A stretch of 62,774 nt of DNA, counting the filler. It is 13 parts of 13 records of this genome, joined end to end, with 100 filler letters (N's around TTAATTAATTAA, not from the genome) between each part and the next. Parts side by side here need not be neighbours in the genome. Positions count along the whole stretch, not along the records: positions 18,856 to 24,237 come from SRR7504441_53904; 12 more parts are not named here. One strand, given 5' to 3'. Both the position numbers and the translations under genes were made by a program. The notes beneath the pieces were generated by a model. That model was not told where the DNA came from. It did no database searches and saw nothing but the letters and a program-made list of their open reading frames with translations. Positions within the stretch are counted from its first letter, which is position 1; each line of letters opens with the position of its first letter. This document shows, piece after piece, positions 854 to 58,218 of this stretch.

Positions 854-897
854 ATGGGTTATTAAATATCGTGCGAATCTGCTTTATACTATGCGTG

Positions 898-2074: not shown

Positions 2075-2108
2075 TGCAGTAACGGAAATCGAAACTCGCA
2101 TACAAACA

Positions 2109-7404: not shown

Positions 7405-9260
7405 TCACACCTCGACCGCTTCATATGTGATCAGATATAACGGCAATGCTTGAGCAGTGTGAAACACCACATATTCCTCCATGGCATCTTCGGTGGGCAA
7501 CCCAGCCGTAAGCACACTGGCAGTCCGCACTGGCACTGGCCGGCCTGGCACACAGATCGAGTCAAATCCTTTGCCCGGGCGATTGCGCTTGGCGTTGGGC
7601 TTGAGCACAGTCTCTGATTGTCCCAATCCAACCATTGCTAGCAAAACTTGCCCGCTACCCTGGCTAAACCAGTGCGCCTTGCTGAAATACGGCGAAAAGT
7701 ACAGTCCTTTGCCAAAGCTATTCGACTGCTGATCCATGCCCTGATCCATGTCCTGCTGCCCAAATCCTTCGGATATCACCCGATCGAGTTGCTGTCCGCC
7801 ATACCAAAACCGGGGGTTGACTGAACTGTCATGCATTGCCTGTAGGCGGACGCCAAAACGGATCGACAGATGATGCGGCACAGCAGGCTTACTGATTGCC
7901 AGCACCCTGATTGCTGCAATCCCGTGACACTCCCTGATTGATGCGTGCACTTCGGCCTCCACCGCACAGAACTCCCTACTGAGAGCCGGCACAGGCTCCA
8001 TCCCAGTCGGCGGTGCAGCTACTGGCTCCACCGATGGGCTGCACTGCTCCAGCGGTAGGGAAGGGCCAAGGACCTGCACCTCGCGCGCGGCCAGCTCTGC
8101 GCGCAGCCTGCTATTCTCGGCGGCAACAAAACTGTGCAACCGCTGCTGCTCGAGCACCTGGCCACAGATCGTCAGCCTAGCCAGGCAAAGTAGCGGCCTG
8201 CACGCGCAGCCTTTGAATCTCGGTATGCAGCATACTCACCAGTCCAGTCTCATGCGCGTATAGTCCGGCCCGAGCCGCCTGCCAGCTGTGCACCTGTCCG
8301 GCTGGTCAGCTGTCGGATTGGGCCTGGTAAGCCTGTTGGCTTATCAGCTGCATGCTGGCGTACTCCTCTTGGGCCTGTTTGCTCTGGTGCAAAACAAACC
8401 GCTCTGGTTGGTCAAAGCACATGGGCACTGCGTCCAGCCCAGGCTTCAGCAATCCAGAGAACCGGGAGGCCAAAATTGGATCATCGCTGAACCCAATCTG
8501 CCGAAAGAACTCGACGGCCTGCCGAGGCACACTACCCAGCAAATAGGCTGGATCTCCCCCCAGCTGCCTGTTCTGAAGAAGCTGCACCAGTCCACGCCCC
8601 ACCCCTCGCCGACGCCAGCTGGGGTGCACTGCGATTGCGGTTAGTTGGACCACAGTGCCCCGAGCGCCGCAAGGCTGCCAACAGGCCAACTGTGGGTCAG
8701 CGGCCGCTGTGGCAAGCTCAAAACACATGCAGCCCACCAGTCGCCCAAACAAGCCACCAGCGACCTCATTGTCCTCCTGGTCCTCTTCGCTCTCTTCGTC
8801 ATCCTGGGAGCTGCTGTCACTCCGGTGGTCCAGAAGGCTTGGCTCGGCTTCGCTCTCGCTCCCCTTAGAATCGGGATCACTGTCCAGCTCCAACTCCGAA
8901 AGCTCCAAATCGTCAAGCCGCGCCAGCTCGGCCGCGCTGCCTGGAACCTCCAGTGTCTGGGTGCACCCACATGGTAGCAGCGCACATACAGTACTCACCC
9001 GATCATCCTGCCGGTCTAGTCGGTCGGCCAGCCTGGCCTGGCGGTGCCTGCAGCATCTGGTTGAGCGACCGGCCGTTCCATCGGGGCAAGCTTCGGCGGA
9101 TCAGTTGCAGCACCGGTCCGATCGCCTCCCACCTGCTGTTGCTGTGCAGCTGCCACAGCTCAATTCGGGTTCCCCTGGGACGCACCTGCAGACTGACGGT
9201 GTACAATCCAGTAATGACCCCGGTGTCCGGGTCGGTCACCTCGATCGACGGCCCGCTCAT
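7405..9260 (-). CDS. Fusion of a GCN5-like GNAT acetyltransferase, a coiled coil and a PARP-like ADP-ribosyltransferase domain
   Basis: GNAT motif A (IAVHPSWRRRGVGRGL) and motif B (AVEFFRQIGF). PARP motifs FGKGLYFS..FSKA, VLLAMVGLG, GFDSI and EEYVVF..AQALPLYLITY. The three track ORFs join in frame through GC-AG introns near 9005-9045, 8294-8330 and 8158-8197. Confidence 0.7.
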
Positions 9261-12700: not shown

Positions 12701-14148
12701 GCGGAAGTTTATGCTCAGCTAGCCTGTCCAAGCCTCATCCCAGTCCGATCCGCTCGGCCGCCTGGAGGTGAGCGCAATCTGGGCCCCGAGTGATCGTTCT
12801 GCCGGCACCAGGCTCCCGTGCTTGTTTTGGTCGTTTGTAAACGCACGCCTGATTGCATCCATGGTCTTTTGCAGCCGGGCGCTGTGCTCCTTCTCGCGCT
12901 GCAGCCGCCGGTCGGACCGTTGCGCGTTGATGTCAGCCTTGGCCAGTCTCTCCCTGGTCTTAGCGCCTGCACAGATAATAATAACGACAACGATGATCAT
13001 GATAGTTCTCTAATCAGAGAAGTGGCTCTGACCCTCTGTGAGCAACACATCACGGGCCTGCTTGAGCTCTCCCTGCAGCCGTCGGACCTCCGCTACCAGC
13101 TCACGCTCCACTGTGGCCCGCTCGCCCAGCGCAGCGGTCAGCCAGTCGCGGGTAGAGTCGAGCTGCCCCTGCAGCTGCCCCTGCGGAGGGGCAGCCTGCG
13201 CCTCAAGCGCTGTTCGCAATTCGTGATGCATCCTGAGGCGGGCGATTGCCTCGGCGGCCGGCCGGAGCTGGTTGTGCGCCAGCTGGGTGGCCCGCCACCA
13301 GACTACTGCCCGCTGCTTGGCCTGCTGCGCCCTGCCGATCATCGACATTGCCAGCCACTTGGCGCCTCCGCTCACACTAGCCTTGCTCAGTCCGGCCACC
13401 TTGTTGGCAAGCGCCTGCCGCTCGCCGTCAGAGGCGTTCCGCAACTCGGCTGTGTGCGCGGCTGCCCGCTGCTGCGCCTCATGGGCGCCCTCTAGCTTGT
13501 TCTCTGCCTGCTTGCGGAGCGCCACCTCCTGTGCCACGCTCGCTTTGAGCGCGGCCAGCTGAGACTCGAGGACTCCGGCCTGGTCGCTGCACCGGATTCG
13601 ATACGGCCTGGCTGGCGGGCCCACCGGCTCTCGCTGAGCTCCACTCGGGTTTTTGCGAGTTGCTCCTTTACCTGATCCCCCGGCTGGGCCGCCCAACTGC
13701 GGATGGGCTCACCTGCCGGTCGCTGTCCTCGCGCGGCGGAGGTTTGGGCCGCTCAGCGGTGGGCGGGTCGCTCAGCGGGATACCCGAGGGCGGCTGGAGC
13801 TGGTCCAGCGTGTAGTTGCCCGCCTGGTCGACAGCAGTGAGCTGCTGTGGCAGGCGGGTGGGTGGCCTGCACGTCGGCGAAGAACTGTTGGTACAGGACC
13901 GAGCTGCCATCAGCGCAGAAATCGACCACCTCACGCACCACCGGCGACGAGACGTCGATGTTGCAGTCGGTCAACGCGGCGAGAAAGACGTCCCGCCGGA
14001 CCACGCCGATCTGTCGCCAGTCAGCTAAGGGGGAGGCGAGGCGGCGCCTGGAGCGGATCGTGCGGTCGGAGTATGGAAGAGACCTGCGCTGTCTTTGCCG
14101 CCACGATCGCCGAAGCCTCGCCCATTTATAAGCCTCGACCACCAGCAC
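9796..14148 (-). CDS. Large multi-exon coiled-coil protein with a C2 domain and a possible N-terminal EF-hand-like segment; may be more than one gene
   Basis: C2-like LELTVLEAHQL...TNPRWLETLEF...VEIEVRD...IGSLKVDL at about 11270-11540. Co-oriented heptad-rich ORFs are separated by mini-introns. The 5' end is uncertain near the linker. Confidence 0.55.
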
Positions 14149-16389: not shown

Positions 16390-16485
16390 TGGACACCCTC
16401 CCAGGGAAGCCGAATCCGTTACTAGCTTCCGTTGTGAGAGGCCCTCGGTGTGACACCGCTCATTCGGCGGTCCGTGGTGGCAGGA

Positions 16486-17696: not shown

Positions 17697-17800
17697 GTAC
17701 TTTCAGGAGTAATTAATTAGTAATTCAATAACCTCGAATACTACCGTACAATATGGCGAATTCACAATGAATGTGTGTAATTCGTATTCCGAATCATGTG

Positions 17801-18511
17801 TCAGCCGCTAAACTCCACTCCTTCGAGCGGCCAATGCGCCGTGCTCCCATCCGCCACAACCCAATCTACCCGGCAGCCAGGCAGCCTCAGTTGTTCGCCT
17901 TCTCCATGCTCCCAGCCAGCACCCCGCACGCGCGTGCAGACCACCACTCGCCCTCCAGGGCTTATCGTCCCTAGCCTAAACTCCAGTCCCGCCTCCCCCC
18001 GCCAGACGGCTCCGATCCGATCTCCGCACGCCACCAACAGGCCGGTGGCCTTCATCCGCGCTGCCAGCCACGGCCCGCCCGCCTCGCGGCACCAGATCTC
18101 CTCCAGGCTGCCCGCAGGGTCCGTCTCTACCCAGACGGCCTCCTCGCCCGCCGGGCTGAAGATCCCAACGTCATCTGTGGGCGCCGGGTGCCCTGCATCT
18201 ATCGCGGCCCAGGCGGCAGCCGAGTCTAGCTGCGGCTTATCCAGGTCGAAGCAGGCGTGCCAGCTCACCTCGGCCTGCTCAACCGTCGAGTCCGGCACTA
18301 CTGCGCTGGCCAGCCCGGCGAAGGCGAGCAGGCCGGCCGCCTGGGGCTGAGACGGGATCCGGAGATCGAAGAACAGGCTCGGCGTCTGCAGGTAGAGCAC
18401 GCAGACCGAGCTGTCCGGCGGTCCGAGCGGCTGGCCCGGGCCCGCTGCCCGCCGGATGCTCCGCCGGGTCCACACGCCCTGCAGCCACTCCGGGACGCAC
18501 TGAACCTCCAT
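17801..18511 (-). CDS. HRI1-like beta-barrel protein, intronless
   Basis: GVWTRRSI, VLYLQT...FFDLRIP, AFAG, VSWH..FD, DVGIF and WVE...EEIW.R follow the HRI1-like pattern known from fungi and proteobacteria. Confidence 0.6.
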   Translation of the reverse strand: MEVQCVPEWLQGVWTRRSIRRAAGPGQPLGPPDSSVCVLYLQTPSLFFDLRIPSQPQAAGLLAFAGLASAVVPDSTVEQAEVSWHACFDLDKPQLDSAAAWAAIDAGHPAPTDDVGIFSPAGEEAVWVETDPAGSLEEIWCREAGGPWLAARMKATGLLVACGDRIGAVWRGEAGLEFRLGTISPGGRVVVCTRVRGAGWEHGEGEQLRLPGCRVDWVVADGSTAHWPLEGVEFSG

Positions 18512-19132
18512 CGCAGCTGCAGCTCGACCCGTCCCGGCGGGCTTTCCGTTAGTTGCCCAGAGCCAGTCGACCGCGGCAAGGTATGTGCCCCAAGGCCCCC
18601 GGGGGGCGCGGCTCGATTGACGGGCGGGGAGCAGATGGAGGCCGAGCCTGCTGGAGAGCCGGCCTGCCCGCCCGCCCAGCCGGAGGCCGCCAGTAACGCC
18701 ACCGCCCCAAGTGCGGCCTGCCCCGCGGGCCGGGCAGAGGGGGGGGGGGGGGGGGNNNNNNNNNNNNNNNNNNNNNNNNNNNNNNNNNNNNNNNNNNNNT
18801 TAATTAATTAANNNNNNNNNNNNNNNNNNNNNNNNNNNNNNNNNNNNNNNNNNNNGACGACATTGTAGGATTGAACGACGCCACCAGAATCAATTCAGAT
18901 TCTGAGGATGACTAATCTAGCCTGTTACTTGTGGCGACTCCGACACATTGACTGTAAATTAAACATTTGACAGACATTTGGTCTCTTGTGCAAAGAGATT
19001 TCATTCGGTGTGTATAGTTTTGTAGACTATTTTATCCTGTTGGGCCAGTGCCCAGATCTATCATAAGAGCATGTCCACGAGATGTATATATCCGGTTATC
19101 CATCACGCATATCGATACGTATCCAGCGTAAG

Positions 19133-19219
19133 GGCCTGCCAGGGTCTCTCCAAGCAGTGGAGGCCGAGCACTCGGTGCTCGCAACTTTCCTCACTGCTCT
19201 TCATTTGCCCCGGCAGGCC
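19133..19219 (-). promoter_or_regulatory. Eukaryotic SECIS element (type II) in the SelT 3' UTR
   Basis: On the minus strand: helix I GGCCTGCCGGG/CCCTGGCAGGCC; core ATGAA...GGAG; helix II GAGCAGTGAGG/CCT(C)CACTGCTT; unpaired AAA; apical mini-stem GAGCAC-CGA-GTGCTC. It begins about 25 nt after the stop. Confidence 0.9.
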
Positions 19220-19243
19220 TGCGCTAGCTCCGCGCAAAGCCTC

Positions 19244-20087
19244 CTAGTATGGCGACGTCTCAATGTTGCTGATGGTCGAAGGCTGAACACCCTGCTCCTG
19301 CAGCCCACTGCCCGACCAGTCAGCTGCTGCCGAACCGAACAGCGCACCGGACAATCGCGCCGATATCAGGGATCCGCCCATCGGTCAGCTTGGAGTGCAG
19401 GGTGACACCGTTGTAATAGACTTCGAACGCGCCTACGACAGCAAGCTGCAGCCACCCGGCACCAGCGGCAGCACCTGTAGCGTGGAGCTGCGTCGAAATG
19501 AACGAGGCCACAAACAGAATCGAGAAGCTGTTGAGTTTGTTCTCCGACATGTATTGCACCTGCCGCCAGCTTCGACCCGCCAGCTGCGGGCCCAGCCACC
19601 AGCTGCGGCGGCTGCTGGCCAGCCAAATCGAACAGTGGCTTGCCGAACAGCATCATGCCAAACCCGGCCATCTGACCGCTGGACTCAGCCGCATGCTCAC
19701 CCGGGGGCGGGCGCCTGCGCGTAGCCGATCGCCTTGCTGATCATGCTGTTCTGCGCGCTGGGCGGGTGGTTCATGCCGTGAGACTGCAGCCGGGCTGAGC
19801 GGGCAGCTGGGCGGGGAGCGACCTTGATCTGCGGGAAGTGGTACTTGAGCTGGTGCTGCAGGTGCACAAACTCCTTCTTGTAGTTTCAGCTGATGCAGAA
19901 AGAGAAGTAGACCACGTCGTCGTGCCCGTTCTTATCGTAGTGCGCCACCAGCTCGGGCGGCATGCTCGCCTCCTGCCAGACGGTGAGCGCCGGTAGCCGG
20001 CCTGCACGCTGCCTGCTTGGCCTCCGCTACCATGCCGGCCACCGCCATGCACGCCAGCACGGCCGCCAGCCCTGAGCGTCGAAGCAT
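19244..20087 (-). CDS. SELENOT: Selenoprotein T (Rdx family) with signal peptide, CxxU motif and six introns
   Basis: Spliced product: MLRRSGLAAVLACMAVAGMVAEAKQ|EASM...VYFSFCIS-UGA-NYKKEF..HFPQIK|SHGMNHPP...ENKL...TGAFEVYYNG..LHSKL.DGRIP. The in-frame TGA is at 19886-19888. Confidence 0.9.
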
Positions 20088-20162
20088 TGCGCGCCGGGCA
20101 ACCAAAACTTCGCGCAGCGCTGCGCGGGCGGGAGGGCGCTTCTCGCGAGCGGGGCAGGCGTC

Positions 20163-20827
20163 ATGTCCACCAAGGCCCGGCAGGCGGTGATCAAGCAGTT
20201 GACCAAGATGCGCAAGGAGCCGCCCGAGGGCATCTCGGCCCAGCCCGCCGAGGAGGGCCTGATGAAGTGGAGCTGCGCCATCGAGGGGTGCGGCCCCTGC
20301 CTGGCCCCGCCCGACCGGTCGCAGCCCGCGGGACTCGGCCTGGCAAGGCGCGTTGCTCCAGCTGATCGTCAACTTCACCGAGGCACCGGCCCGGCCGGGG
20401 CTGCCCAAGAGCAGGAGCGCAGGAGTACCCGATGAAGCCGCCCGAGGTGCTCTTCACCACAAAGATGTATCATCCGAACAGTGCGCCGCCGGCCGGGCGG
20501 GGGCGGGACCGGGCGGGCAGTCTACGACAGCGGGGCCATCTGCCTAGACATCCTGCAGGACAAGTGGAGTCCGAGCTACGACATGGCTGCCGTGCTGACC
20601 TCGATTCAGGCGCCCGGCCATCTCAGCCAGCCGGTCTGACCGGTGGCCAGTCGCTGCTGACCGACCCAAACCCCGATAGCCCGGCCAACTCGATGGCCGC
20701 GCGCGAGTATGTAGAGAACAGGCTGCTGTACACGCAAAAGGCGCGACCGGAGCCCGGGGTGTGCCGCTCATCGGGCGGCTGTCAGGTGATGGAGTGCGTA
20801 GAGAATAGTTGGATAGTTAAAAAATAA
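20163..20827 (+). CDS. Ubiquitin-conjugating enzyme E2, Rad6/UBE2A-like, with five introns
   Basis: Introns at 20288-20324 (GT), 20383-20422 (GC), 20481-20520 (GT), 20610-20650 (GC) and 20741-20785 (GC) give ...FTEEYPMKPP...[25 protein letters not shown]...[17 protein letters not shown]...[10 protein letters not shown]. Confidence 0.92.
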
Positions 20828-21193
20828 AAGCCGTATGCGCTCGCGCGATATACTGTGGCGTGCTAATCCTAACGACGCTGTTTACGTCTTTCTAAATCTT
20901 GAGTGCTCGTACGCAGTAACCCCCCCCAAGAACTTGGTTTATACGAGTATGCTATCTCTAAACTCCTCCCTTGTCAGCAAGCTCACACAACTTCTCTTGA
21001 CACCCAGTCAACGCCCACACCAGCACGAATCTGCTGATCATCAAAGCGTCATGGTCTCACAAGGCAGGTAGACATCACCCGAGCCAACTCCACTAAAGTT
21101 ATCTGTAGTCCGATGCTCTGCGCCGCCGACAGTGCACCACTAGATATCGCAGCACCGGCAGCGCTGGCTGATCGTCGCTACATGAGGAGCCGC

Positions 21194-21695
21194 TCATTGG
21201 CCCTGTGCGACCATCATTAGCGTGATATTGTCGCCCTTCAGCAGGATCCGACCTGCCCGCTCCCCTCAGCCATCCGCCAGCAGCCCCATCGCTGGACAGC
21301 CGGTGGCGGGGTCCGGCCAACGCTACGCTGCCGGGCAGTGTGGGCCGGGAGCGGCCCCCTAGGGGACGGCAGCGGTTGGTGGGGCACCTAAGGCTTTGCG
21401 CTCGGTCTGCTTCTTGGAGATCTCCTCAGCCTCGTCGAGCACTAGGTTCATGTACTCGTCAAACCCCTGCCCCAAGGTCAGCACCCAACAGAAATTCTCG
21501 TTACGATGATCCGGCCCTCGATCCGCAAGTCGGTGTTCTCGTAGAGCCAGATGCAGATCCGCTGCTTGTTCTGGAGGAAGCGGAAGATCAGATTCTGCAG
21601 GCGGACACCGCTCAGCCGGGGCCGGGCCGTGGCGGAAGGGAGCGGCTCACGATGGGCTGAGTCATCACTTTTTGCAGCTTTTGAGGCCCCGACAT
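21194..21695 (-). CDS. SNRPE: Small nuclear ribonucleoprotein SmE, with three introns
   Basis: Spliced product: [60 protein letters not shown]...[14 protein letters not shown]. Confidence 0.95.
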
Positions 21696-21860
21696 GATTG
21701 CCGCTCTCCTCTGTCTCCGTGCCCCGACTCGGCCGCGACACGGCAACGGACGGACTCTCTCAACATCTTGGTGGTCGCCCTGCCTGCGTCCAAGGTCTCC
21801 AAGCCGGGGGTTGTGCCCCGCCGGGACTCAGCGCAACAGCCAGCCCTGGAGGCGGTGAAG

Positions 21861-25769: not shown

Positions 25770-27576
25770 CTACCAGCCCTTGTTCTGTTTCTTGACATCG
25801 CGATGCTTACCCTTTCCGGAGCCACCAAACGACCCGCGGTTAGACTCCACAGTAACCTCGACACCACCCTCGTCAGCACGACCATCCTAGGATATAGCCA
25901 CAATCATATGTTAATACCTGCCGATCGGCCCCTTTGCCCTTGCCGTCGCCCCTCTTGCCGCCCCTACGCTGGTTCCCCCCTTTGCCGCCTTGCTGCACCT
26001 GCCGCGCCCAGTCGGTTCTGACTTGACTTTAATCAACCTTGCTTCCCCCGTCCTTGCCGCCGGCGGCCTTACCCTTGCCTGCCGCCAAGCTAAAACCTAT
26101 CAGCCCGCTGCCCACCGCCCTCTTGTCTGCCCTTGCCGCCCTTGCCGCCTTTGCCTTTGCCACCAGACGAGCCGGATGAGCTCTGCAGGCCGGGCTCAGC
26201 AGGCCATTGGCCGGATAGCAGCACCTGCCAGTGCGGCTGGAAGTCGGTGCGTGGGTCGTATTTCATCTCATGAGCTCGCCCACCTCGGTCCGGCACCTTC
26301 ACAGCCCCGGTGACACCCTGGCCAGATCGGCACACACCCAGCCGATCCGGACGCGCATCAGCTCGTCAGGCGTGCTGCCGGCAGAGATAGGCCGCTCGAA
26401 TATGGCCATGTCGTCCTGAGCCGTTGGAGGTGAGCTATCGGCCAGAGGGCTTGCACACCTCCATCGTGAACACGACCGATGGGTCAACCGGGGCAGTCGG
26501 AGAGCACTTGCAAAGCAGCGGGGCGATCATTGCATCGAATTCCTCCAACTTGCCCTGGTAATGGGTCAGCCTCCTCCCCGACTCAGCAGCGATGCCTCGA
26601 TCCGTGGAGAGTACTTGAACGACTGTATCATGACTCCCAGCCGCTGCAGCACCATCCGCCGGCTGCGCACACAGCTCACGCAGCGCCCGGCGAGTGGGCA
26701 CCGCAGGCTGTACTCGTATTCGAGAGCTTTGTTGATCTCCCCTAGCTGGGCCTGCACGCCACGTTGGCCTCATCCGGGGCCCGAGCACACCAACTGCTGC
26801 TCGCTTAGACTGTTGGCCGGGACCACCACGCCGCTCGCATTCCGCTCCCGCAGTTTGCCCACCTGCGCCAAAGCTTTGGGCATCCGGCGGCCGAGCGCTA
26901 CCGCCGCCGTGATCTGATCGCACTGGCTGATCAGGTTAGGCCCAACGTCCAGCCCGAGTGCGGCACTGATCTCGCCGAGAGGTGTGGCCTGGGCCGGCTG
27001 ACGGCGCCCGGGCGAGCCTCACCAGATTCGGCTGGTCAGGGACCTCCCGGTGGCTCATCCGGGCCAGTTGCAGTTCGGCTGCCAGAAAGCCTCCCGACCG
27101 CTCAACCCGGCCCGGCCAGCTGACGCACCCAGCACGTCGCACACCCCGGCAGGGTCCAGATCGCCTGCGCACCCGCCGTTACATCGCCCCCTCCCCGGCC
27201 ACCTGCGCTCTCCAGCTCGTAGCCTGCCCCGCTCTCAGCCGGAGGCCGCCCGACCGCCGCACCGAGTGCCTTCAGATAGTCGCACAGCCGGGTGCCGAAC
27301 TGGGCCTTCGGGAGGTTCTCCGGGATCGGGGCCGGCACCTCGATGACCGCGTCTGCCCGCCGCTCTGCGCCCGGATGCGGCCGGGCCCACCTCGGGCGAG
27401 CAAGCGGGTCAGCTGGCCGATCAGCTTCCGGAACGGGCCCGAGCTGCCCGGCTGGTTGGCTATGGCCTCGAGCGCCTCCAGGCTGATGACCGGGCCGCTG
27501 CCACAGCTCTCTGAGGGCCCCGGCGTGGGCCGCACCCGAGGCTCTCGAGCTGCTCGAGGAGCGCTTCCGGCTCCAT
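25770..27576 (-). CDS. FAM98: FAM98-family protein (tRNA ligase complex subunit) with a Gly/Lys-rich tail
   Basis: N-terminus MEPEALLEQLESLG|GPVISLEAL...SSGPFRKLIGQL. Core INKALEYEYSLR|RRMVLQRLGVMIQSFKYS and VRIG|..VPDRGGR, both FAM98 signatures. Confidence 0.8.
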
Positions 27577-36961: not shown

Positions 36962-38741
36962 TTATATCAAGATCGTACTGCCGTAATCTTGTCTCACCAT
37001 GGTTTGCACCTTATCGATTAGTTGGACAGCCCAACCTCGCAATCGTGGGACTTGCGTGCACTCGCGCTTGACACAACGCAACAGCAGCCCGGTGTCTTCA
37101 AGGTTACGCCGCTTCAACCAATCAGTCACCACCTCGACTAGGTGCCGCTGCGCCTCCTCACCGGTTGGCTCTAGCGGCCCCTCGGTCGTTCTGATCCAGG
37201 TTGCAAGCTCCTCCCGCCACAACCGGAACCGACCCGGTGAGCTGCTCGTTTCCGCCGGCGCCTCGGCGGGGGCTGGCAGCGGCTGTGGCTGCGGGGGGCT
37301 GGTGGGCTGTGGCTGCAGCCGTTGTCGCGAGGAGCGGCGGGCGGGCTGGCGCTGTGCCGCCTCGGCCAGCTTCATCTCTGCAACTATCTGCAGCGGCAGA
37401 GCGGCCCGCATGCCTGGCGAGAGCTGGGACAGCCGCATCGGCTCTGTGGGCTCGTCTGGTTGGGCGGGTGGGCTTCTGGGCCGCTTGGCTGGCTTGTAGT
37501 GCTGTTCAAGCTCTGACCGGATGGCCAGCGGAAGAGAGTCCAGCACTGCGCTGTCCACCTGCCCCGTTCTGACCCGCCAGCCCGCTGCCCAGATGCCTGC
37601 GACAGAGAGTCCGGGAACAGATCCAGCGTCGGGTCCGGCTCGGACCGGGCCGCCGGCTCCTGAGCCTCCGGACGGGTGGGCACTTGCCCGATCAGCTCAC
37701 TCGCCAGCTGCTGCAGCTCGGTACCCACCTGCACCAGCTCACGCTGCCTGGGGCCGGCACGGTGCCTGAGCACGGGCTGCGATCAACTCTGCGCAGCTGG
37801 TGAGCCCGAGCCTGGACACCTCCAACTTGGCTCTCCACCCGAGAGGAAGAAGCGCTGCCATGGCTCAGCCAACGTTGGATGCAAGCAGCCGGACCTATCG
37901 GCAGCCGCCCGGACTCCTCCGGGCTCAGCATGGCGTGGCCCGGGGCAGACGGCACCGACTGGGCAGCCAGCCAGGCGAGTAGCTCGGTGCGCCCGTACCC
38001 GAGCCGGGCTGGGCAGCCGGAGATGCCCTCGAGCTGGCTGAGCAGTCCAGCAGGGTCGATCCCTGGGCCACTGAAGTGCGCCTGCTGCTCCGACGCCCAA
38101 CGGACCCTGGCAGCCCGCGACTGGAGCAGTTGGTTGACCCCGTCGAGCACCTCCAGCCGGGCTCGGCCGCTCGGGTGCAGCGTTTGCAGCCCGTCCAGAA
38201 TCAGGCATGAGGCTGCTGGGCCGGAAGACTTGAGCTGACGCTGGCCATGAGGCACCGGTGGCGGCACCGAGAAGTCCAGGGCCGGGAGAAGCCGGCCCTC
38301 CGCGATCGACTGGGTGACCCACTCCGGCCGGACGAACGGGATGTGCGCGCCTTTGAACTGCCGGGCGGCCTTGGACGCCGCCAGGGCGGTGCCCACGCAG
38401 TGGGTCACTTTGGTCTTGGAGAAGTACTGCTCGCACCGGCCGCCGTGTTCTCCGAACATGCGCTGGAGTACAGTTGGCGGCGGCTGGGTGAATCCGTTGA
38501 TCCAGATGGTCAGACCAGCAAAGATGCTGCTCCGGCTGGGAGGCCCGTCGAAACGCTGGCGCAGCAGCCGTTCTTTGCGCTCATGGTAGCTCTTGTGCCC
38601 GCCCCAGCCGCCCCCGCCGAAGCCGTGCTCGCCCCGCTCCTTCGAGGCCTCGAACTGACGCCGGAGCTCGTCGGGCTCTTCCATGAGTTTCCGCTCGTCG
38701 GCCAGCGGCGGGCCTGCCTCCTTCGGCGAGCCCGCCTGCAT
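36962..38741 (-). CDS. REV1: Short REV1-like protein (BRCT, degenerate polymerase remnant, two UBM-like motifs, Rev1 C-terminal domain), about 552 aa
   Basis: REV1-type N-terminus SYHERKERLLRQRF..SIFAGLTIWINGFTQP..HGGRCEQYFSKTKVTH..VRPEWVTQSI.EGRLLP. UBM-like SQ|VDSAVLDSLPLAIRSEL. C-terminus WIRTT..P...NLED...VQTMVRQDYGSTIL. Introns of 40, 43 and 38 nt restore one frame. Confidence 0.8.
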
Positions 38742-46351: not shown

Positions 46352-48606
46352 ATGCAAGGCACCACACGCGGCAAGAAGAAGACCAGTTCGGCGCCCGGCT
46401 CCGGCAGGAAGGCCGGCTCGGCGCCTGGGGGTGGACGGGGCAACCTCTCGGTGGGCGGCGGCGACCGGCCGGCCACGCGAGTCACCTCGGGTACGCCACT
46501 AGGATGCCCCTCCCGCACCCGCTCCGCCCCACACAGCCGCCCCTGCGGAGCCCGCTCCCAAACCCAAGGCTAGCCGCCCCTCCGAAAGTGGCCTGTGCCA
46601 GCCCGCCGCGCTGCGACACGCTGGCCGGCTGACCGGAAGCTGGCTCGGTAGGTGTGGGGCGCGGTCGCGTGAAGAAGCGCCCGCCGTCCTCCGGGCCAAT
46701 CTATCAGGTCAAGCCCCGCTGCACCGCGCACGGGCCGAGGCAGCTCGGGCAGGCTCAGCTGAAAGACAGTGCCCCGGCAGACCGGCCAAACCTGATGATT
46801 CAAAAGCTGCGCTTCTGCATGAAGTGGTGCGGCTCGACCCACAGCCGGCCGCCCAACAGTGCCTGGGGCAGTTACGACTTCAGTGACGACAGTGTCGAGG
46901 AGAAGTCTGCCAGAGATGCTAAGAAAGTTAAACAAATGATACTAATGGAGATCTGCGACTACATCAACGGTGAGCGCCCACGGCCCGGCTCGGCTGGCGC
47001 GGTCGGTCTGTCACTCGACAGTCGGCCGTGGCGCTCGCACTGCCGCAACTGGGCTAGCTGTCGTGTCTGATGCTCGTGAGCGATCCCGGGTCTGAAACTC
47101 GCGGCTGGAGTGGCGAAAGGGCCGGCTGTGCGGCTGACTAACTGGTGGGTGGCTGCAGCCAAGCCGCAGATCCTGACTCAGGAGGCCGTGGTGTCTCATC
47201 TGATTGAGATGGTGACCGCCCTCACACCGAGGCCAGCCTCGAGCTATCCACTGCAGGTCTCTTGCAACCTGTTCAGCGGGCAGCGGGCCTTCGTGGCCTC
47301 GGAGCCGTCCGAGGAGGAGGAGCCGCTGCTGGATCCTGCGTACGTCCACACACAGGCATTTGCTCCCCGCGGTAGCGCTGTGATGATCGGGGGTGGCAGC
47401 TCGTGTATGAGATTTTATTGAGGTTTGTGATGAACGGGGACACTGAGAGCGGCATGATGCGGAGGTATGTCAATCTCGAATTCATCGACAAGCTGGTGCG
47501 CCGCCCTGTGCCTGCTGTGGCGATGGATGGGCAGCTGTCCGCATTCAACACGGAGGACCCTCGGGAGAGGGAGTACCTCAAGACAATCCTGCACCGGATA
47601 TACGGCCGGTTCATGACCTTCAGGCTCCAAATCCGCAAGGCGATCAACAACATATTCTACGAATTCACTTACCAAGACGACAAGCATGCGGGGATCGGTA
47701 TCGACCCCAGACCGCCTCCGCCCCCGTGACAGCCGCGCAGGTGAGCTGCTGGAGATCCTCGGATCTATCATCAACGGATTCGCCTTACCGTTGAAGGACG
47801 AGCACAAGTCATTCCTGGCCAAGTATCTGCTGCCACTGTACAAGCCGCGAGGGATGCTCAATTACCACCCTCAACTGTGCTACTGCATCGTGCAGTTCGT
47901 GGAGAAAGACCCGAGTCTATCTGCTGTCATCATCCAAAGCCTGCTCCGGTGCGCCGCCGACTGCTGCCACCGGCGAGCTCCTGGCAGGTGGTGGCCACAT
48001 AGCAACAGCCAGAAGGAGGTGGCTTTCTTAAACGAGGTCGAAGAGGTGTTCTGGTTGGTCGGTAACCTGGCAAGAGCCTGGGCGCAGGTGGTGGAGAGTA
48101 CACACAACCCGGAGCAGAATCTGCTCGATGTCGTCAAGCTCATCTTCAAGCGAATAGCCAAATGCATTCTCTGCAATAATTTCCAGGTCTTGACTTGCCG
48201 GGCCTGGCTCACCTCTCGATTAGGTAGCGGAGAGAGCTCTCTTCCTGTGGCAAAGCCCACAGTTCCTCGAGTTCTCCAGGTAGCGCGGCCGGCCAGCCAT
48301 TGGCCAATCGGTGTGGGCAGGAGCAATCTGAACGCCTGCCTGCCGATTCTGTTCCCGGCACTCTGCCCTGAGACGGAGCATTGGAACCCGAGTGTACAGC
48401 AGCTGTCAGCAGGGGTGCTCGAATTCTTCCAACAGGTGGATCCAGCCAAGCTCGAGGCTGTCCGCGAGCAGAACGAGAAGGATAAGGTCGAGTCCAAAGC
48501 TGCTGCCCAACGGCGGAAAGAGCAGTGGCAGAAGATAGAGCAGATGGCCCAGATGGCAACGGCAACAAAAGGATTGGAGCAAGTCAAGATAAACGACGAA
48601 ACCTGA
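46352..48606 (+). CDS. Protein phosphatase 2A regulatory subunit B' (B56), many introns
   Basis: EEEEPLLDPA, LVYEILLRF, FNTEDPREREYLKTILHRIYGRF, GELLEILGSIINGFALPLKDEHK, YHPQLCYCIVQFVEKDP, FQVAERALFLW and HWN. Confidence 0.95.
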
Positions 48607-50458: not shown

Positions 50459-52236
50459 ATGCTCTCACTGTGCGCTCGGCGGGGCGGTAGTATAACCCTG
50501 CGGCGCTGCGCCCGGCGGGGGGCATCGCGGCAGTGCTCCGGGCTGCCGCAGACTGGCGCATCGCCCTGGGCGCCGCGGATGGCGCTGGCGGCCGCCTCGG
50601 GCACGGCGATGTATGCGGCATGGGGCTCGCAGCAGTCGGGCGGTGCCCCTATCCAGAGGGCGCGGCCAGCAGCTGGGGGCAGCGGTGTTTAATCCGTTGG
50701 AGTGGGGGATTGCCGGCCTGCACACCGCTGGGGTGCCCTGGTGCGGCTGCCTGGTCGCCACGGCCGTTGGGGTTCGGGTGCTAATCTTCCCGGTGCGCGG
50801 CTGGCCCGCCGGTCCAGACCGGGCCACGGCCAGATGATGCGATACCAGATGTTCCAGCAGCCTGTCATGGCCCGTGCCTCAGCCTCCCTGCACAAGATAG
50901 CCGCCCGCGTGGCAACTGCGCAGGCCACGGTGCCGCCCCCATGCCCAGCGCTCAGCCGCACCCCGCGCAGGCAGCCAAGGCGGAGCTCGGCTCGTTAGGT
51001 CAATTCCGGGCGGTGCAGCGCCGGTCGGCCGGGCGGAGGCCCCTCGGCAGGTCTGGGCGGAGATTTGCGCCGAGTGGAGCCTCTTGAGCAGTGCCATCCG
51101 CACGATTGGCCAAAGCTACAGCTACGTGCTCCTCCAGCTGCCGGCCTTCGTGCTGGCGGTGTGCGCAGGCCCCGGCGCGCGTGCTCACCCAATGGCCAGA
51201 TCAGCACGGTGCGCCAGATGAGTCTAAGCCAGGCGTATCCGGACATGAAGCAAGGCGGAATGCTATGGTTCGCTGACCTCTGTGAGCCTGATGTCACCTG
51301 GGCACTCCCTGCAGCCAATCTCTGCCTGATCACCTTCAACCTGGCGGTGCACGCCGCAATCAGCCCAGCGCTTGACCGGCACCGCAGACTGCCTTCCCGC
51401 CCACGCCGCTGTGGCGCCCGATCTGGGCTGGTATGACGCTGCTTGTAGCTGCCATCACACCGCTAATCTACCAGCTGCCTTCGGTAACGACACGCCAGCC
51501 CCGGGCCGACCGGAATGCAGGGCGTGTTTGTGTACTGGGTCTCGTCCAGCTCGCTGATGCTGCTGCAGCGGCTGGCGCTCCGCAGGCCGGCTGTACGCAG
51601 AATGCTTCGGCTTCCCGGTGCCCCGACCCAGGTTGGCTTTCCTCACACGGCCGGCAGCGATCCCGGGGCCGCGCACTGCGGAGGGCCCGGAGCAGGCGCT
51701 GGTGCAGCGGTTGGTGAAGAGACACCTTGACCGGAACAGCGCTCTGCCTAGGCAGCAGCGGCTTGCTGTCAAGCAATTGGTTCCTGCGGTTCAAGCCGAG
51801 CTCGAGGCACCGTTTAGAGCAGCCTTGAATGATTCTGTGAGCAGGAGGCTCGGCAGGAGGGCAAGCTGACGGCGCCGTACAGAATCGCCGTCCGTAAGGT
51901 CGGCTGCTAGTGGCCGTGGGAATCGAGGTGGGGGCTCTCAGGATCCTAGCGGGAATCATCCGGACTCGATCGTAGTGGAGCTGGTGGCAGCCGACGGCGA
52001 CATGGAACGTGTCAATCAGGCGATTGGCAGGTGGGCTAGTGCGTTGGGCCGAGGGTGAATGCTGGCACAGGATTAGTCAAGGGAAGAAGATATCTCAAGA
52101 GCTCGCAGACGAGGTGAACCAAGAACTTGCAAAGATGCATGCCCGAGGGCTGATCGGGGCGAGAGTGACGATCAAACTCGAACGGCGCAAGGACGGAAAA
52201 CTAGGCTTCATCTTGGACCTCAACCAGCGCGCTTGA
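50459..52236 (+). CDS. Mitochondrial Oxa1/Cox18 (YidC family) membrane insertase (multi-exon)
   Basis: Arg-rich presequence; LH..GVPW..CLVATAVGVRVLIFP, LLQLPAF, GGMLWFADL..PD..W.LP and GVFVYWVSSS....LQRLAL. The 3' exons are less certain. Confidence 0.8.
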
Positions 52237-52399: not shown

Positions 52400-52891
52400 T
52401 CACAGGATATCGGTGGTGTCCACTCCGTTGTAGGCCGTATCTACCACCGCGGCCTGACTACCGCCACCAGGCCAGTTGTACACCGCCTGCCCTGCGATCA
52501 ACTACACCCCGTCCATCAGTGGCGTGACCTCGCCACTGTGCTGCCCCTGTTCCCAACGGCCTTCGATCCGCCCCCCGTGGCTCCACGTAAACGCCCCGTC
52601 CCCGTGGGCCTGCAACCTCTCCCGAAGAGGCAGGCAGCCACGCCCACCTGGCCTTCCTCAAACATGCCCTCGTATTTGCCAGACTCCGCCGCGAACTGGA
52701 ATACCCCCTGGTCCTTGACTAAGCCAGCCGGAGGGGGTGGCTGCCTGGCCGTGGCGCTTCCCGTCCTTGAACTGTCCGTCGTACTACCCCCGGGGCTCGG
52801 GGCGCGGGCCTGGAAGGTGGGTGCCTGGCTGCCGTCCTCGTGGTCGATGCAGTGCTGGCCCTGCAGCGGCGGCTCCTCCTCCTACCCCCAC
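52400..52891 (-). CDS. MORN-repeat protein, 5'-truncated
   Basis: Spliced product: HEDGSQ|YDGQFKDGKRHGQ|GVFQFAAESGKYEGMFEEGQ|AHGDGAFTWSHGGRIEGRWEQGQHSGE|AVYNWP. It is not in the ORF track. Two of the four donors are GC. Confidence 0.8.
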
Positions 52892-53171: not shown

Positions 53172-53664
53172 ATGGCTGACTACACCAAAGGAAAGGATTT
53201 CGACGGGGTGCGCCCTCCCTCCTCCGGCCCGGCGGCTGATCGCCCGGCGCAGGATAACCGCGACACCATCCACAAGATCCGCATCTCGCTGACTGCCCGC
53301 AACGTCAAGGCGCTGGAGAAGGGTGCGCCCCGCCGCTCGCCCTGCGGCTGACCCGGTCCGCGGTGCAGTCTGTGCCGATCTTGTGCAGGGCGCCAAGGAC
53401 AAGCGTCTGCTGTGCAAGGGCCCGGTCCGGATGCCCACCAAGAAGCTTGTAATCACCACCCGCAAGTCGCCATGTGGCGAGGGTACCAACACCTGGGACC
53501 GGTTCGAGATGCGCATCCACAAGCGCGTCATCGACCTGCACTCGCCCTCCGAGACAGTGAAGCAGATCACTTCTATCAACATCGAGCCTGGTAGGCGCGG
53601 TCGGTGGGCGCGCGGGCGAGCCGGTGGGGCAGGTGTGACTGTCGAGGTTACCATCGACTCATAG
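53172..53664 (+). CDS. RPS20: 40S ribosomal protein S20 (uS10), with three introns
   Basis: Introns at 53208-53252, 53323-53368 and 53591-53632 give ...[22 protein letters not shown]...[41 protein letters not shown]...[11 protein letters not shown]. Confidence 0.97.
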
Positions 53665-54273
53665 ATCCTATCGAGTTTGCTTAGCAGCAAGTGATGCAGA
53701 GACGCATAAATAAAGCGGAAAAAACATATGTGCTCTGTGGCGGCCAGCTGATCAGCATCGCGGCGTGTCGCAGTGTGTCGCCGCCGCTGTATATGATGTG
53801 TGGTCCGGGTGGGCTGTAGTGGGGGGCTGCAGTTGGGGTGCAGCGGCATGGTGTGAGGGGCAGGTGTTACAGCCCCGTGCCGATTGGCTGTACAGAAGCG
53901 CCTTTGTCGATCCATACGATGTCACACGCGAGTTGAGCACAGCCTTGCATATGTTTGTAATATGTATGTACGCCGTATCTGATCGATCAGCGTGCAGTCG
54001 CCCGTTAGGTATTCATTTCGTGAAGCGATGTTTTTCAACGAATCAAAGATACGTCACTATGCAAGCGATGGGTGATGCAACGCTCCGGTGGGCACCTTGC
54101 CACGCGCACTATGCGCTTGAGCATGATTCATTCTGATATGATACCAGTGCGGGAGTCCAGCTGAATCGTTCACGTAAATGCGGACCGTACACGCAGAAGA
54201 ATAAAGGCGTAAATTGACACAACATCACACAAGTGTTACTTGCACTTCTAAAGCTTACTTGATCAGCATTAAT

Positions 54274-57200
54274 CTAGTCAAAGAAGTAGGGTGAGTCACA
54301 CACCACCTGCCACACCGCCCGTCAAGCGGGCCCCGCGGCCCGAGCTGCCTTGAGGTCCAGATCGCCCCGCTTGGGCAGCTGCGGGAAGCTGACATCCGGA
54401 TGCCTCAATCGAAATAGCTCCTTGAGGTCCTCCAGCAGAGGCTCAGAGTGCAACTTAACAAATTGCTCCCGCAAAGCCTGCAACCCGAGCTCAGCCGAGA
54501 GTCCGGCCCGGGACTGGCCTTGTTCATCGCTGGAATGTCGCAGCCGTGAGTCCAGTACGAGTCATGCACCGCAGCAAAGTCCTGTCGGCCAGTCAGCCCC
54601 CGAGAAGCCTGAGGCCGTCACCAGCCCTTGCTTGTCGCATTCGAGAGCCGTAAGCATCATGTGAGTCGAGTCCAACGAGTGCACGAAATTGGGCGGGAAT
54701 GCAGTCTTCTGGCGGGCCTTGAGCACCTGGGAAATGGGTCGGTCGGCCGATCGAGATGCCAGTTACTGGCTGATCATCCACGCTGGACATCACCAGAGTC
54801 TGCATTCTAGTCTTGATTGCGCGCTTCCTCTCCTTTCGGTACGGCTGCACCACGGGCAGCCCTAGAGGCGTGACCCACGCCACGTCCTGCCCCGTTGCCG
54901 CAATCCGCTGCGCACACTCGGCAAGCCAGCACTGCACTCGGATCACGGGCTGTGGGTGGAACTAGTGCACCTTAATCGAGTCTGCGCCTACAAACTTCTG
55001 TCCGATCGATTTGAGCGTCTTGCGGGCCAGATAAACTGACGCGGTGTATTGCAAGTCTTCTTCAAACCCTTTCTCGCGAAGCCTGTTCTCGATCTGCTGC
55101 CTGCAAGCCGCCAGATCAGCCCCTGGCACGATCTGCGTGTCGGCACCGCGCCCCTACAAACGTGACTCCATACACGGAGGTCATGACTGTCTGCTTGACC
55201 GTCTTCCGTTCTACATATGGCGCCACCTGCCCCAGGATCACGGCGCCCTGGCCGCTGAGTTGCCTTGGCGGCCAGCTCGGCCATTTCCGTCCGTCCGACC
55301 ACCTGTTGTGCCTCCGCATACACCTCGTCTTTAACCAAATTCATAACCCCCGAGTATACGTCCTGCGGCTGTTCAGCAGGCACCAAATCCACCTGACCCG
55401 CCCTGAACAGACAGCCCACGCCCGCGCGCACCTGCGCCGCTCCTTCCATGTCCCTCCCCAGCGCAGCATAGTGCTGAAGCCCGTTACAAGAGCCATCTTG
55501 ATGCACTGGCAGCCGAGAAGCGTACTCCTCCGGCCCGTCCGGATGTCGGATCGCCGCGGCCAGCTCCCTCGCGGTGAGCAGGCACTGCCAGGGCTCGTCA
55601 GCCTCGGTCCACCATTGCTTGCCCTCGAGCGGGTTATCTGCCGAGTCCAGAATCTGTGACATCGAGTCTTCCACAAAATCAATCCGCCCACTGCCAGCCG
55701 TCAGCCAGAGCGTTCCCTGCGCTGCACCTGAACGTGCGTTTGTCCTCGCCGAACAGGTTGGCCAGGTGGATCTTGAGCCAATACAGCCCGGTCTCGCCGA
55801 GCGGCTTGGCGTTGTCAAACGTGAGCAGGCTGCGGCAGTAGTCGGCCGACAGGTGGTTGAAGTGCGGAGGGATCGGGTAAGCGCGGCCCCGGAAGTCGAC
55901 GTTGTGAGGAAAGTAAATCGGCCTCCCCATCACACTTTCGGCGCACTCCATCTGCCCCAGCCCTGAGCGGCCGGCTGCGATTTTCAAGGTCGCACTTTGA
56001 GCCTAAAGTCGCATCGGAGAGAGTTCAAGTTGGCGTTGTCTCTCTTGATCCGCGCCCGATTCCTGTTGTACTGGACCTTCTCTTCTATTGGCATCTCGAC
56101 CCCCTTCTCCAGCTTGGCTGGAGTGGGCCTGTCCCGATCCGCCGCCGACAACGGCACCCCAGCCAGCCCGCCGCCCCGATCCCAGACCTGATGTTAATGT
56201 TAGGCTCAATGCATTGAGCCGTGCACCTGCTTCAAGACCGACATCTGGACTGGATCCACACGCCACGGGACAGACGACAGAGCGTTCAGCGCTGTGTACA
56301 CCTCGCTCAGGTCGGCGCTCCGTAGAGCCTCAGTCTGGGCGTAAACGCCCTTGGTGCGCATCAAGGTCGACGGCAGCTGTAGAAACCTGACTCCACGCTC
56401 AGCGCTCGTTGTTCGTGTATCGAGTCACCCTCCGGTTCTGGAACTGGTCCACGGCTGCGGCTTGCACAGCATGGGCGGGGACTGCGGGTGTAACTGGGCC
56501 ATCACCTGATCCCAACCGTCGGCCCAGACTTTTATAACGATAATAAATGGCACCTCATGGTCTTGTTCTATCTTCGCCCGCACCCTCGTATCTAGCTTTA
56601 TAATCCCAAAGTGCTTGTATGTCCGCCCCTCGTCTAGATTTTCTGTCAAGTGTTGAAACGCCTGACCGACCCAGTCAGGCCGGCAGGCTGCGGCATGGTA
56701 TACATTGCATGTGGCGCCCTCCTTGGTCTGAAAAGTTGCATTGTCTACTACAAGCTGTATGAGCGCCCCCCCGACCTGCGCAGCCTGAGCCAATACCGGG
56801 CGGCTGCCATGCCTTAACAGAGACACGCTGGCCCCAGTCGGTGTCATTGAGCGCCTTCTTGACCATTTGCTTGAGCATATCCGGCCTGCGAGTGGATCAA
56901 TCCATACCTAGGATCGAGCCACCTGCTCCGACCCCTCGACAGAATCTCCTCTTGAAATAAATAATTCTTCCCAAGATCCTTCTGCCTAGCTTCCAGATCC
57001 TGCTTGAGCCGCTTATAATTCGACTCAGCCTGTCCCCCGTCAGCCGCCACCCGCATATCAGTCGCAGCACCTGGACCTCCTCCCCGATCTTATTGGCCAA
57101 CATCGTATACTTGACAGAGCCATCGGTCGCATTCACGTTCTTAGTGACCATCGACATCACCCCGTTCAGCGCAATTACCGCCAGTTCCTCCTTCTTCAGT

Positions 57201-58218
57201 GTCATAAGGAACGGGCCATACGTGTTTCGATCAATCTGTGCACCGGCAGTCATCGCACGCACAGCACAAGGCTCGCACTCCTGCTTCGCCCGCGGTGATC
57301 GCCCGCTGCTCCTCCCCGGCCGCTTCGACGATCCGCTCGTACCAGAGCCGGACCATTTGCTTGCTCGGACCATGCTCGGCGCTCTTCGACAGCCGGTCCA
57401 TGTTTTCGCGCATCTACAATTAACCGATCACTAACCCACAACCGCCACAGCCACTCGCCTCCTCGTACTCTTTCACAGCCCGGTTAACCGCCGATATCTC
57501 CGAGTGCAGCTGGGCCAGCACCTGTCCCCACCGCTGGCGGGGCACGGGCAAGTCAGGCCATAACCTTGCAATCATCCACCACTTCAGGCCTTTGCTCACC
57601 TATAGTGTAAATCCGCCGGAGCAAATTGCGGTAGCAGCCCATCAGCTGGTGCACCCGCCTGGGCGGCAGGTCCGGGGGCAGCCGCGACAGCTCCCAGTGC
57701 AGCATCTCGTACAGCTCGTCCGCGTCCTCCCCGGTATGGCACTGTTCGATCAGCGAATTGTACCCCGCAGTCAGCGGCCATTTAGTCTGGTCCCGGGCGT
57801 GTCGCAGCACCCGGGCGGCCTCCGCGGCCCGGCCCGAGTCGCTGGTGTACATGACCAGCCGCTCGAGGAGCTCGGCCGGCAGGGCGATCTGGTTTTCCAT
57901 TGCCTGGTCGAATAGGTGGAGCGCCCACGGCAGCTGATACTGGTCGAGCGCTCCCCCGATCCATCCAGCCGCGTCCTCGGCCGGCAGCCCGGGCTGGTCG
58001 TCCTCCGGCTCCGGCTCGGTCGCCTGGCTGAGCAGGTAGTCCACCTCGCTCAGCCCCGGTTCCTCCTCGGGGGCGGCCGCCTCGTCATCGTCCAGTGGAA
58101 ATGGCTCGAGGTCCAGAAGCGCGCTCACCAGCGGCTGGTCCTCCGGCTTGCTGCTCATCGCCCGCCGCGCCAGCCGGCCCAGCCCCCGGTGCCGCAGCAG
58201 CGGGAGCCACCGGAGCAT
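54274..58218 (-). CDS. POLRMT: Nucleus-encoded mitochondrial phage-type (T3/T7-like) RNA polymerase, many introns
   Basis: Presequence [22 protein letters not shown]-like helices; [71 protein letters not shown]-terminus SPYFFD*. Confidence 0.95.

Follow-up and report, generated by a model that had tools for sequence, protein, structure and literature searches.

In animals, fungi and plants about 98% of introns begin with GT and end with AG (PMC7072748), and GC-AG introns, in which C replaces T at the second intron position (+2), make up about 1%. Much larger shares have been reported from marine protists; Iwata and Gotoh found GC-AG to account for 39.6% of introns in Aureococcus anophagefferens and 22.2% in Micromonas pusilla (PMC3033335, 2011), describing the class as loosely tied to genomic G+C, accompanied by canonical U1 5′ ends and, in its origin, "an enigma". 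A recent preprint (10.1101/2024.10.30.620910, 2024) places pelagophytes at 14-17% GC-AG (14-17% in Aureococcus, about 14% in Pelagomonas) and ascribes this to GC content, and in Pelagomonas GT and GC donors both occur among the introners. In human, GC 5′ splice sites depend on compensating signals (PMC3167603), the AG at the exon end being within the strengthened consensus of such sites (PMC3167603; Thanaraj and Clark 2001, cited in PMC3488318), and annotation of dinoflagellates fails unless non-GT donors are permitted (PMC8045281). Here we describe mini-introns with frequent GC donors in a stretch of 62,774 bases (the window) from a single genome bin, taking as the focal case a RAD6/UBC2-like E2 gene located at 20163..20827 on the plus strand. 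These are very probably ordinary introns of the U2 type, near minimal size, belonging to a GC-rich marine protist in which GC donors are tolerated after an exonic AG.

The window joins 13 unlinked contigs of 3.2-8.1 kilobases (kb) each, separated by N44-TTAATTAATTAA-N44 spacers (5803-5902, 9407-9506 and ten more). Contig G+C ranges from 0.56 to 0.67, with about 61% for the whole, and statements made window-wide refer to 62.8 kb of genome across the contigs of this one bin. In 11 marine metatranscriptome runs, which belong to four studies, 5-9% of the words sampled from positions 16000-25900 are present, indicating that the source is a marine eukaryote whose transcripts are represented in publicly available libraries of polyA and total RNA. 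RNA contigs from runs X2, X3, X9 and X10 (four studies) were aligned to the contig at 18856-24237, which carries the E2 gene, with 90% likeness admitted.

Once five segments are spliced out, the E2 gene provides an open frame of 153 amino acids in six exons. Four of the exon pieces match the Pfam family UQ_con at profile positions that are contiguous from exon to exon, and the best PDB matches, to RAD6/UBE2A/B, align exon 1 with residues 1-40, exon 4 with residues 82-110 and exon 5 from residue 111 (111-142); the product is predicted to belong to the UBC fold, with the catalytic HPN...C region included and colinear with RAD6. Three of the five introns, all on the plus strand, begin with GC, the same count as in the original prediction. 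Intron 2 (20383..20422, GC-AG, 40 nucleotides (nt), preceded by exonic GAG) is removed in RNA of run X10 at a joint with a three-letter ambiguity, inside which GC..AG is the sole GT-AG or GC-AG reading, and was also selected by the constrained parse described below. Intron 3 (20481..20520, GT-AG, 40 nt) has an unambiguous RNA joint in the same run. Intron 4 (20610..20650, GC-AG, 41 nt, preceded by exonic CAG), likewise selected by the constrained parse, is fixed to the residue because the alignment passes from RAD6 residue 110, the last of exon 4, to residue 111, the first of exon 5; a single GT-AG or GC-AG reading exists there, namely GC-AG following CAG. Intron 1 (20288..20324, GT-AG, 37 nt) and intron 5 (20741..20785, GC-AG, 45 nt, preceded by exonic AAG) are taken from the gene model. 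The RNA contigs span introns 2 and 3, with introns 1, 4 and 5 and most of 21736-24237 outside their cover. Intron 5 keeps the frame and contains no stop codon. Its proposed donor lies at query residue 30, and the alignments to RAD6 extend to residues 30-32; removal of the intron is predicted by the gene model, and the segment may be retained. One RNA contig diverges from the window at 20286 and leaves 21 letters unplaced, a weak hint of intron 1.

On the same contig, 11 RNA joints agree with the gene models, eight of them GT-AG and three GC-AG. Exact joints with zero mismatch on both sides occur among them, and a single GT-AG or GC-AG reading is possible inside the ambiguity of each joint; segments running from GC to AG are removed exactly from RNA at 19672-19714, 19973-20012 and 20383-20422. 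The first two of these belong to a SelT-like (Rdx family) selenoprotein gene (19010..20087, minus strand), all six introns of which are RNA-backed, two being GC-AG as had been claimed. The intron at 19672..19714 (43 nt, preceded by exonic CAG) is seen in run X9 only and that at 19973..20012 (40 nt, also after exonic CAG) in runs X2 and X10 from two studies, and the constrained parse selected both. The remaining SelT introns (19308-19347, 19433-19474, 19560-19599 and 19784-19822) are GT-AG by their RNA joints. The SmE (LSM) gene (20923..21707, minus strand; Pfam LSM) has three introns, at 21253-21387 (135 nt), 21467-21504 (38 nt) and 21595-21650 (56 nt), which are joined in RNA of two to three runs each and are all GT-AG, in line with the earlier count of no GC donor in this gene. 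The SelT frame stays open after splicing provided that one TGA within a C-I-S-U motif (exon 19823-19972, minus strand) is read as selenocysteine, and the exon so translated matches Pfam Rdx with E=7e-4 and 20.2 bits, under the cut-off of 22.6.

Junctions in two further genes were placed by protein homology, using profiles built from 70 of 120 B56 proteins, selected by length, and from the seven closest proteins to the window's mitochondrial RNA polymerase (POLRMT). All frame-consistent, stop-free donor and acceptor pairs within 21-24 nt were enumerated blindly, with any dinucleotide admitted, and the spliced peptides were rescored. Twenty B56 and POLRMT junctions examined in this way yielded 13 GT-AG and five GC-AG introns, with two junctions having no profile-fixed reading. 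At the 18 resolved junctions the best length class holds one XX-AG reading, XX being GT (13) or GC (5) only, and no other donor, GA included, is required. The B56 (PP2A regulatory subunit) gene part at 46753..48588 (plus strand), delimited by profile high-scoring segment pairs (HSPs) and the enumeration, contains GT-AG introns at 47698-47740, 48187-48223 and 48280-48320. The remaining B56 intron, 47356..47399 (44 nt, preceded by exonic CAG), is GC-AG and was again selected by the constrained parse; no different XX-AG reading comes within 2 bits of the top score, the best GT-AG reading being 13 bits lower, with a weak upstream HSP of 3.9 bits.

The POLRMT gene (54277..58074, minus strand; enumeration and spliced model) contains 18 introns, 13 of which are GT-AG, and its spliced product is a stop-free protein of 1022 amino acids with 59-61% identity over about 1000 amino acids to metatranscriptome proteins. 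Four of its 14 resolved junctions are GC-AG: 57414..57458 (45 nt, after GAG; best GT-AG 19.8 bits lower), 56776..56812 (37 nt, after AAG; best GT-AG 6.3 bits and TC-AG 1.6 bits lower), and 54478..54518 (41 nt) and 54307..54348 (42 nt), both after AAG and both with zero GT-AG candidates. A probable fifth, 55227..55263 (37 nt, after AAG), lies in a variable region where the junction is not fixed by the profile; it keeps the frame open and was selected by the constrained parse. The second junction without a profile-fixed reading consists of two GT-AG introns flanking a 107-nt exon. The GC donors that had been claimed for B56 and POLRMT are therefore present, and the genes examined with at least five introns (E2, SelT and POLRMT) all have at least two GC donors.

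Pooling these junctions gives 35 introns, 11 from RNA, 18 from blind enumeration, one from the exact PDB anchor and five from gene models, of which 25 have GT and ten have GC donors (29%, 95% interval 15-46%). Without the model-derived introns GC donors number nine of 30, and with four more POLRMT introns (n=39) the count is 28 GT and 11 GC. For the window as a whole, a constrained parse was run with a codon log-odds model that admitted GT in any context, any other tested dinucleotide after exonic AG, acceptors of the form CAG and introns 35-48 nt long. The parse picked 16 AG-preceded GC donors (+29 bits; 2.2 per 100 sites) and 55-58 GT donors, whereas the 14 control dinucleotides were picked 0-2 times each, with no more than 0.7 per 100 sites and no more than +5.8 bits. 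The GC picks fall on nine of the 13 contigs and include five of the ten pooled GC introns. When GC was admitted in any context, 13 of the 25 picked GC donors followed AG, whereas AG-preceded sites are 5.3% of GC sites, and the pooled set was recovered similarly for the two donors (GT 10/25, GC 4/10). The raw GC share of the parse is 16/74, or 22%, rising to about a quarter after a rough subtraction of the control background. GC-AG introns thus exceed 10% of introns in this high-G+C genome, both in the pooled set (10/35) and in the parse (16 GC against 58 GT in 62.8 kb). The observation of mini-introns with frequent GC donors is confirmed, and the large share of GC donors holds, although the proposed figure of about one third is lowered to about 22-29%.

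These results also bear on the reading that the GC-AG calls are artefactual, whether through wrongly placed boundaries, errors of assembly, polymorphism between strains at +2 or mixing of genomes in the bin. The bin is fragmentary, with contigs of 3-8 kb, the RNA differs from the window by indels at 21121 and 19085, and GC is a common dinucleotide (11%), so that chance GC-AG pairs are easily found. However, exact RNA joints occur, the enumeration proceeds without other donors, the controls reach 0-2 picks where GC reaches 16, and polymorphism would need to have struck +2 at no fewer than ten sites, solely after AG, making an artefact most improbable.

The introns share a compact architecture. 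Lengths lie between 37 and 46 nt in 37 of 39 introns (33 of the pooled 35), with a mode of about 40 nt and exceptions of 56 and 135 nt, and intron G+C is 0.71-0.73, as had been described for these mostly 37-46-nt, GC-rich segments. The described lack of a polypyrimidine tract and G-richness before CAG are likewise borne out, positions -12 to -4 being 47% G, 26% C and 17% T. The branch motif, which had been called merely loose, is better defined than that: CT[GC]A[CGT] occurs in 22 of the 39 introns, mostly at -14 to -21, compared with a shuffle mean of 4.0 (maximum 11 in 500 shuffles). The other 17 introns are without the strict motif, and overall the set carries a branch-like motif of the YTNAY type. 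The acceptor is CAG in 32 of 35 introns, with G as the first letter of the downstream exon in 21 of 35. Given the branch-like motif and the near-invariant CAG acceptor, the sequence signals are less loose than claimed. GT donors tend to GTGCGC, with C at +4 in 13 of 25.

Other intron classes fit these sequences poorly. Neither the U12-type donor RTATCCTT nor a TCCTTAAC-like branch is found among the 35 donors and 3′ regions (consensus sequences after PMC3033335); the nearest approach is the B56 intron 47698-47740, which starts with GTATCG, one letter off GTATCC, and has no TCCTTAAC-like branch. Mobile or non-conventional introns, either introner elements or the end-paired type of euglenids and diplonemids, would have precedents in the pelagophyte introners with GT and GC donors and in the non-conventional introns of marine diplonemids (PMC6221363). 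This origin is scarcely credible here, however, since the interiors of 34 introns behave like shuffled sequence and form no repeat family in this small sample (2 of 561 pairs scoring beyond the 99.9th percentile of shuffles), pairing between the terminal 14 nt at the two ends is at the shuffled level (longest complement 2-6 nt), and the borders are invariant G[TC]..AG, unlike the variable borders of euglenids and diplonemids.

The most distinctive feature of the GC donors is their exonic context. As the original prediction stated, every GC donor follows an exonic AG, whereas GT donors do not need one: the exonic AG precedes 10 of 10 GC and 9 of 25 GT donors in the pooled set (p=0.00055), and 11 of 11 GC and 12 of 28 GT donors in the set of 39 (p=0.0009). 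Counted the other way, 11 of the 23 donors following AG are GC, compared with 0 of all 16 other donors. The GC introns are all in phase 0, after AAG, CAG or GAG, a restriction that follows from the AG rule together with GC-rich third codon positions. The consensus at +3 to +6 is not strengthened in the ten GC donors and the AG at the exon end is a stronger consensus than in GT introns, suggesting that any compensation is carried by the exon end.

We propose that introns of the major, U2-dependent type have shrunk in this genome to near the smallest workable length, with a mode of about 40 nt. Some 22-29% of them carry C for T at +2, and GC is tolerated solely after exons with a terminal AG. 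This AG, together with the G at +1, would pair with U1, and later with U5 and U6, offsetting the mismatch at +2. At AG-preceded sites T and C would then be near-equivalent, and GC-biased substitution may push many of these sites to C. Because the exon-AG rule is real, exon-end pairing that compensates for a weak GC donor is a reasonable inference, and this part of the earlier interpretation is plausible. Its other suggestion, that introns are defined largely by length, is conjectural, and the sequence signals are less loose than stated.

An altered splicing machinery could also be envisaged, through a U1 5′ end that is changed or present in a second form, through modified bases or U1 proteins, or through recognition resting mainly on U5/U6 contacts at the exon end, such that +2 would be irrelevant and the GC share would reflect a changed specificity and no tolerated decay. 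The near 50:50 ratio of T to C at +2 after exonic AG (11/23 GC) would be consistent with this, as would the GTGCGC-like GT donors with their frequent C at +4 (13/25), which match the canonical U1 poorly. Base modification or U1 proteins were invoked by Iwata and Gotoh for Aureococcus and M. pusilla, yet the U1 5′ end is canonical in both of these published high-GC-AG species (PMC3033335), and a strict need for exonic AG is itself a prediction of ordinary U1 pairing compensation; we consider an altered machinery unlikely. A tentative possibility, which we would not favour, is that the identity of +2 is effectively neutral after exonic AG, the 5′ site being read via the exon end and the G at +1, and not via an intronic GURAGU, by an altered U1 small nuclear ribonucleoprotein (snRNP) or a U5/U6-led pathway, in a host from a deep, unsampled marine protist clade known from metatranscriptomes.

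GC donors might instead be deliberately weak sites serving regulated retention or alternative splicing, given that such donors are enriched in alternatively spliced genes of human, nematode and Arabidopsis (PMC2490688, PMC3488318) and that two introns in the window, one of them GT-AG, are in frame and stop-free. This is quite unlikely, as the GC donors stand in housekeeping genes (E2, POLRMT and SelT) at a share far beyond a regulatory subset, and no unspliced run-through of a GC intron occurs among the contig pieces listed, although contigs are poor evidence on this point. The GT-AG case is the POLRMT intron 55393-55431 (minus strand, 39 nt), whose removal adds 20.6 bits to the profile score. 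If 20741-20785 and 55393-55431 (45 and 39 nt) are read as part of an open reading frame (ORF), they contribute 13-15 spurious residues.

Several points weigh against ordinary U2-type introns with compensated GC donors as an account of the window. RNA proof is available for just three GC-AG introns, two of them through one short contig each, and contigs say nothing about how efficiently an intron is spliced or how often it is retained. Gene models are the basis for five of the 35 pooled introns, E2 intron 5 among them, and junction-level evidence comes from three of the 13 contigs, with parse-level candidates elsewhere, all of these contigs being unlinked pieces of one bin. A naive dynamic-programming parse (donors in any context, 25-150 nt), which picked 101 GT and 124 GC introns, proved powerless and was set aside; within 36-47 nt it gave 20 GC introns against 4-22 for control dinucleotides, with no separation. 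Counts of signals only (AG-preceded donor, branch and CAG) place GC and GT at the top with a small contrast to the controls (0.037-0.042 against 0.011-0.030 in one count, and 0.041-0.046 against 0.026-0.037 in another), which is weak support at most, and flank coding scores were too weak to classify single introns. At +4 and +6 the GTGCGC donor consensus is a poor match to the canonical U1 5′ end, so U1 pairing may matter less than modelled. Compensation through pairing with small nuclear RNA (snRNA) is putative, and a search of the window with Rfam found no RNA gene. GC bias is likewise a putative cause: M. RCC299 has 64% G+C but only 2.7% GC-AG (PMC3033335).

Genomes rich in GC-AG introns are already known in print, and the earlier statement that the class is common only in a few lineages such as Emiliania and dinoflagellates is incomplete, as it omits Aureococcus (39.6%) and M. 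pusilla (22.2%; PMC3033335) and the pelagophytes (14-17%). The window resembles Aureococcus and M. pusilla in deriving from a GC-rich marine protist with GC-AG introns at tens of percent, a U2-type look and AG acceptors, and its host is another lineage because its proteins are without close named relatives. Its G+C of about 61% compares with 66-70% in GC-AG-rich picoeukaryotes. The pelagophytes differ in intron length, with averages of 103-177 base pairs (bp) and introners of about 210 bp against about 40 nt here, and in their introners, for which no corresponding repeat family is found in the window. With animal and plant GC sites, the introns share a mismatch to U1 at +2 that is offset elsewhere, but GC is here 20-30 times more frequent and the compensation would lie at the exon end. 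As in dinoflagellates, which use GC and GA donors, annotation of this marine protist needs non-GT donors; unlike in dinoflagellates, no GA donor is needed, the introns are far shorter and there is no spliced leader among the loose ends listed. Paramecium offers a likeness of another kind, namely a tight clustering of lengths close to a minimum, and introns that, being in frame and stop-free, are invisible to ORF reading. Its introns are AT-rich and GT-AG, whereas those described here are 71-73% G+C with many GC donors. Paramecium introns measure about 25 nt (PMC5014332).

A length of about 40 nt, a strict exon-AG rule and a phase-0 restriction are not stated in the main-text portions of the GC-AG literature surveyed. 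The combination of non-repetitive introns of about 40 nt, an all-or-none exonic AG and a near-even T:C ratio after AG was likewise unfound in the literature searched, the supplements of which may hold it. The window would represent a third, unrelated-looking lineage of GC-rich marine protists with tens of percent of GC-AG introns. Its tiny non-repetitive introns, all-or-none AG and even T:C ratio help to separate donors tolerated under GC pressure from donors spread by introners, and so clean a pattern makes the compensation hypothesis directly testable, given snRNAs and raw reads. On the practical side, gene prediction that expects GT donors, a minimum intron of about 50 nt or interrupted ORFs will go wrong for a large share of the genes here.

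The affinities of the host were approached through several of the encoded proteins. The B56 exon is 33-38% identical to any B56, and a search for protein relatives of E2 exon 1 came back empty. The closest POLRMT proteins are from JGI, Logan and one EukProt transcriptome, and in a FastTree phylogeny of 35 POLRMT rows, of limited sampling and with a midpoint root for drawing only, the window groups with environmental sequences outside animals and fungi. Among PDB matches of RPS20, a chain of 6zj3, which we take to be Euglena, and the next-ranked chains score alike, and the chains named yeast RPS20 score lower. The best-matching metagenome locus for POLRMT, L001 (Ga0307398_10005029), carries at 200-3466 an uninterrupted full-length frame with 51% GC and 76% identity in the query exon. 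The frame probably represents a transcript from the closest relative sampled, whose G+C is much below that of the window. Related metagenome loci gave no example of such introns, the best match (L001) looking intronless and the others having few introns.

Beyond the genes treated above, the AG-preceded GC introns picked by the constrained parse include a number of candidates in or near other genes. For the GNAT-PARP gene (8158..8197 and 8294..8332, minus strand) and the BRCT (REV1-like) gene region (37559..37596, minus strand), where GC donors had been predicted, the donors stand as parse-level candidates. Further candidates lie at 13824..13866 and 26555..26595 (both minus strand), 51586..51631 and 51807..51844 (plus strand), 52708..52744 and 52772..52809 (minus strand), and before a choline-kinase exon at 61741..61781 (plus strand). 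A Pfam scan of 148 coding-looking segments identified TrmO, GNAT, C2, LRR, E2, LSM protein, ACPS, VWA, Rad51, BRCT, ankyrin, B56, GH32, RPS20, mitochondrial RNA polymerase, ITPK and choline kinase. A second scan of 133 further ORF pieces found PARP and added one anchored junction (TrmO); MORN was not located in either scan. A run of 17 G at 18739-18755, a sequencing artefact by appearance, terminates the fourth contig.

Some details of the RNA contigs concern SelT and SmE. Relative to the window, 3 nt are missing at 21121 in the RNA contigs of all four runs and 2 nt at 19085 in those of two runs, so that in these untranslated regions the strains differ or the assembly is in error. Among the 15 joints listed, four are at odds with the gene models (21253>21446, 21460>21530, 21463>21504 and 21463>21565); all lie in a conserved LSM exon and have either replaced letters or sides only 21-26 letters long, and they were set aside as SmE transcripts of other organisms that passed at 90% likeness. 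The 135-nt SmE intron at 21253-21387, present in RNA of three runs, is the only long intron among the 39. The SmE contig of run X2 leaves the genome at 21670 (minus strand) with 23 letters unmatched, which could represent an alternative first exon or another organism, and a contig of another run reaches 21707. No letters are common to the 5′ ends of different genes among the loose ends listed.

The RPS20 gene (53172..53665, plus strand), supported by Pfam S10 and PDB uS10 matches, was modelled with three introns, at 53208-53252, 53323-53368 and 53591-53632. All are GT-AG, agreeing with the earlier count of no GC donor, and translation of the model runs open for 119 residues without meeting a stop, followed beyond the translated stretch by a stop codon seen by eye. 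A possible further intron in the 5′ untranslated region, before the RPS20 start codon at about 53106-53149 (plus strand), was noted by eye from the succession GTGCGC ... CTGAC ... CAG.

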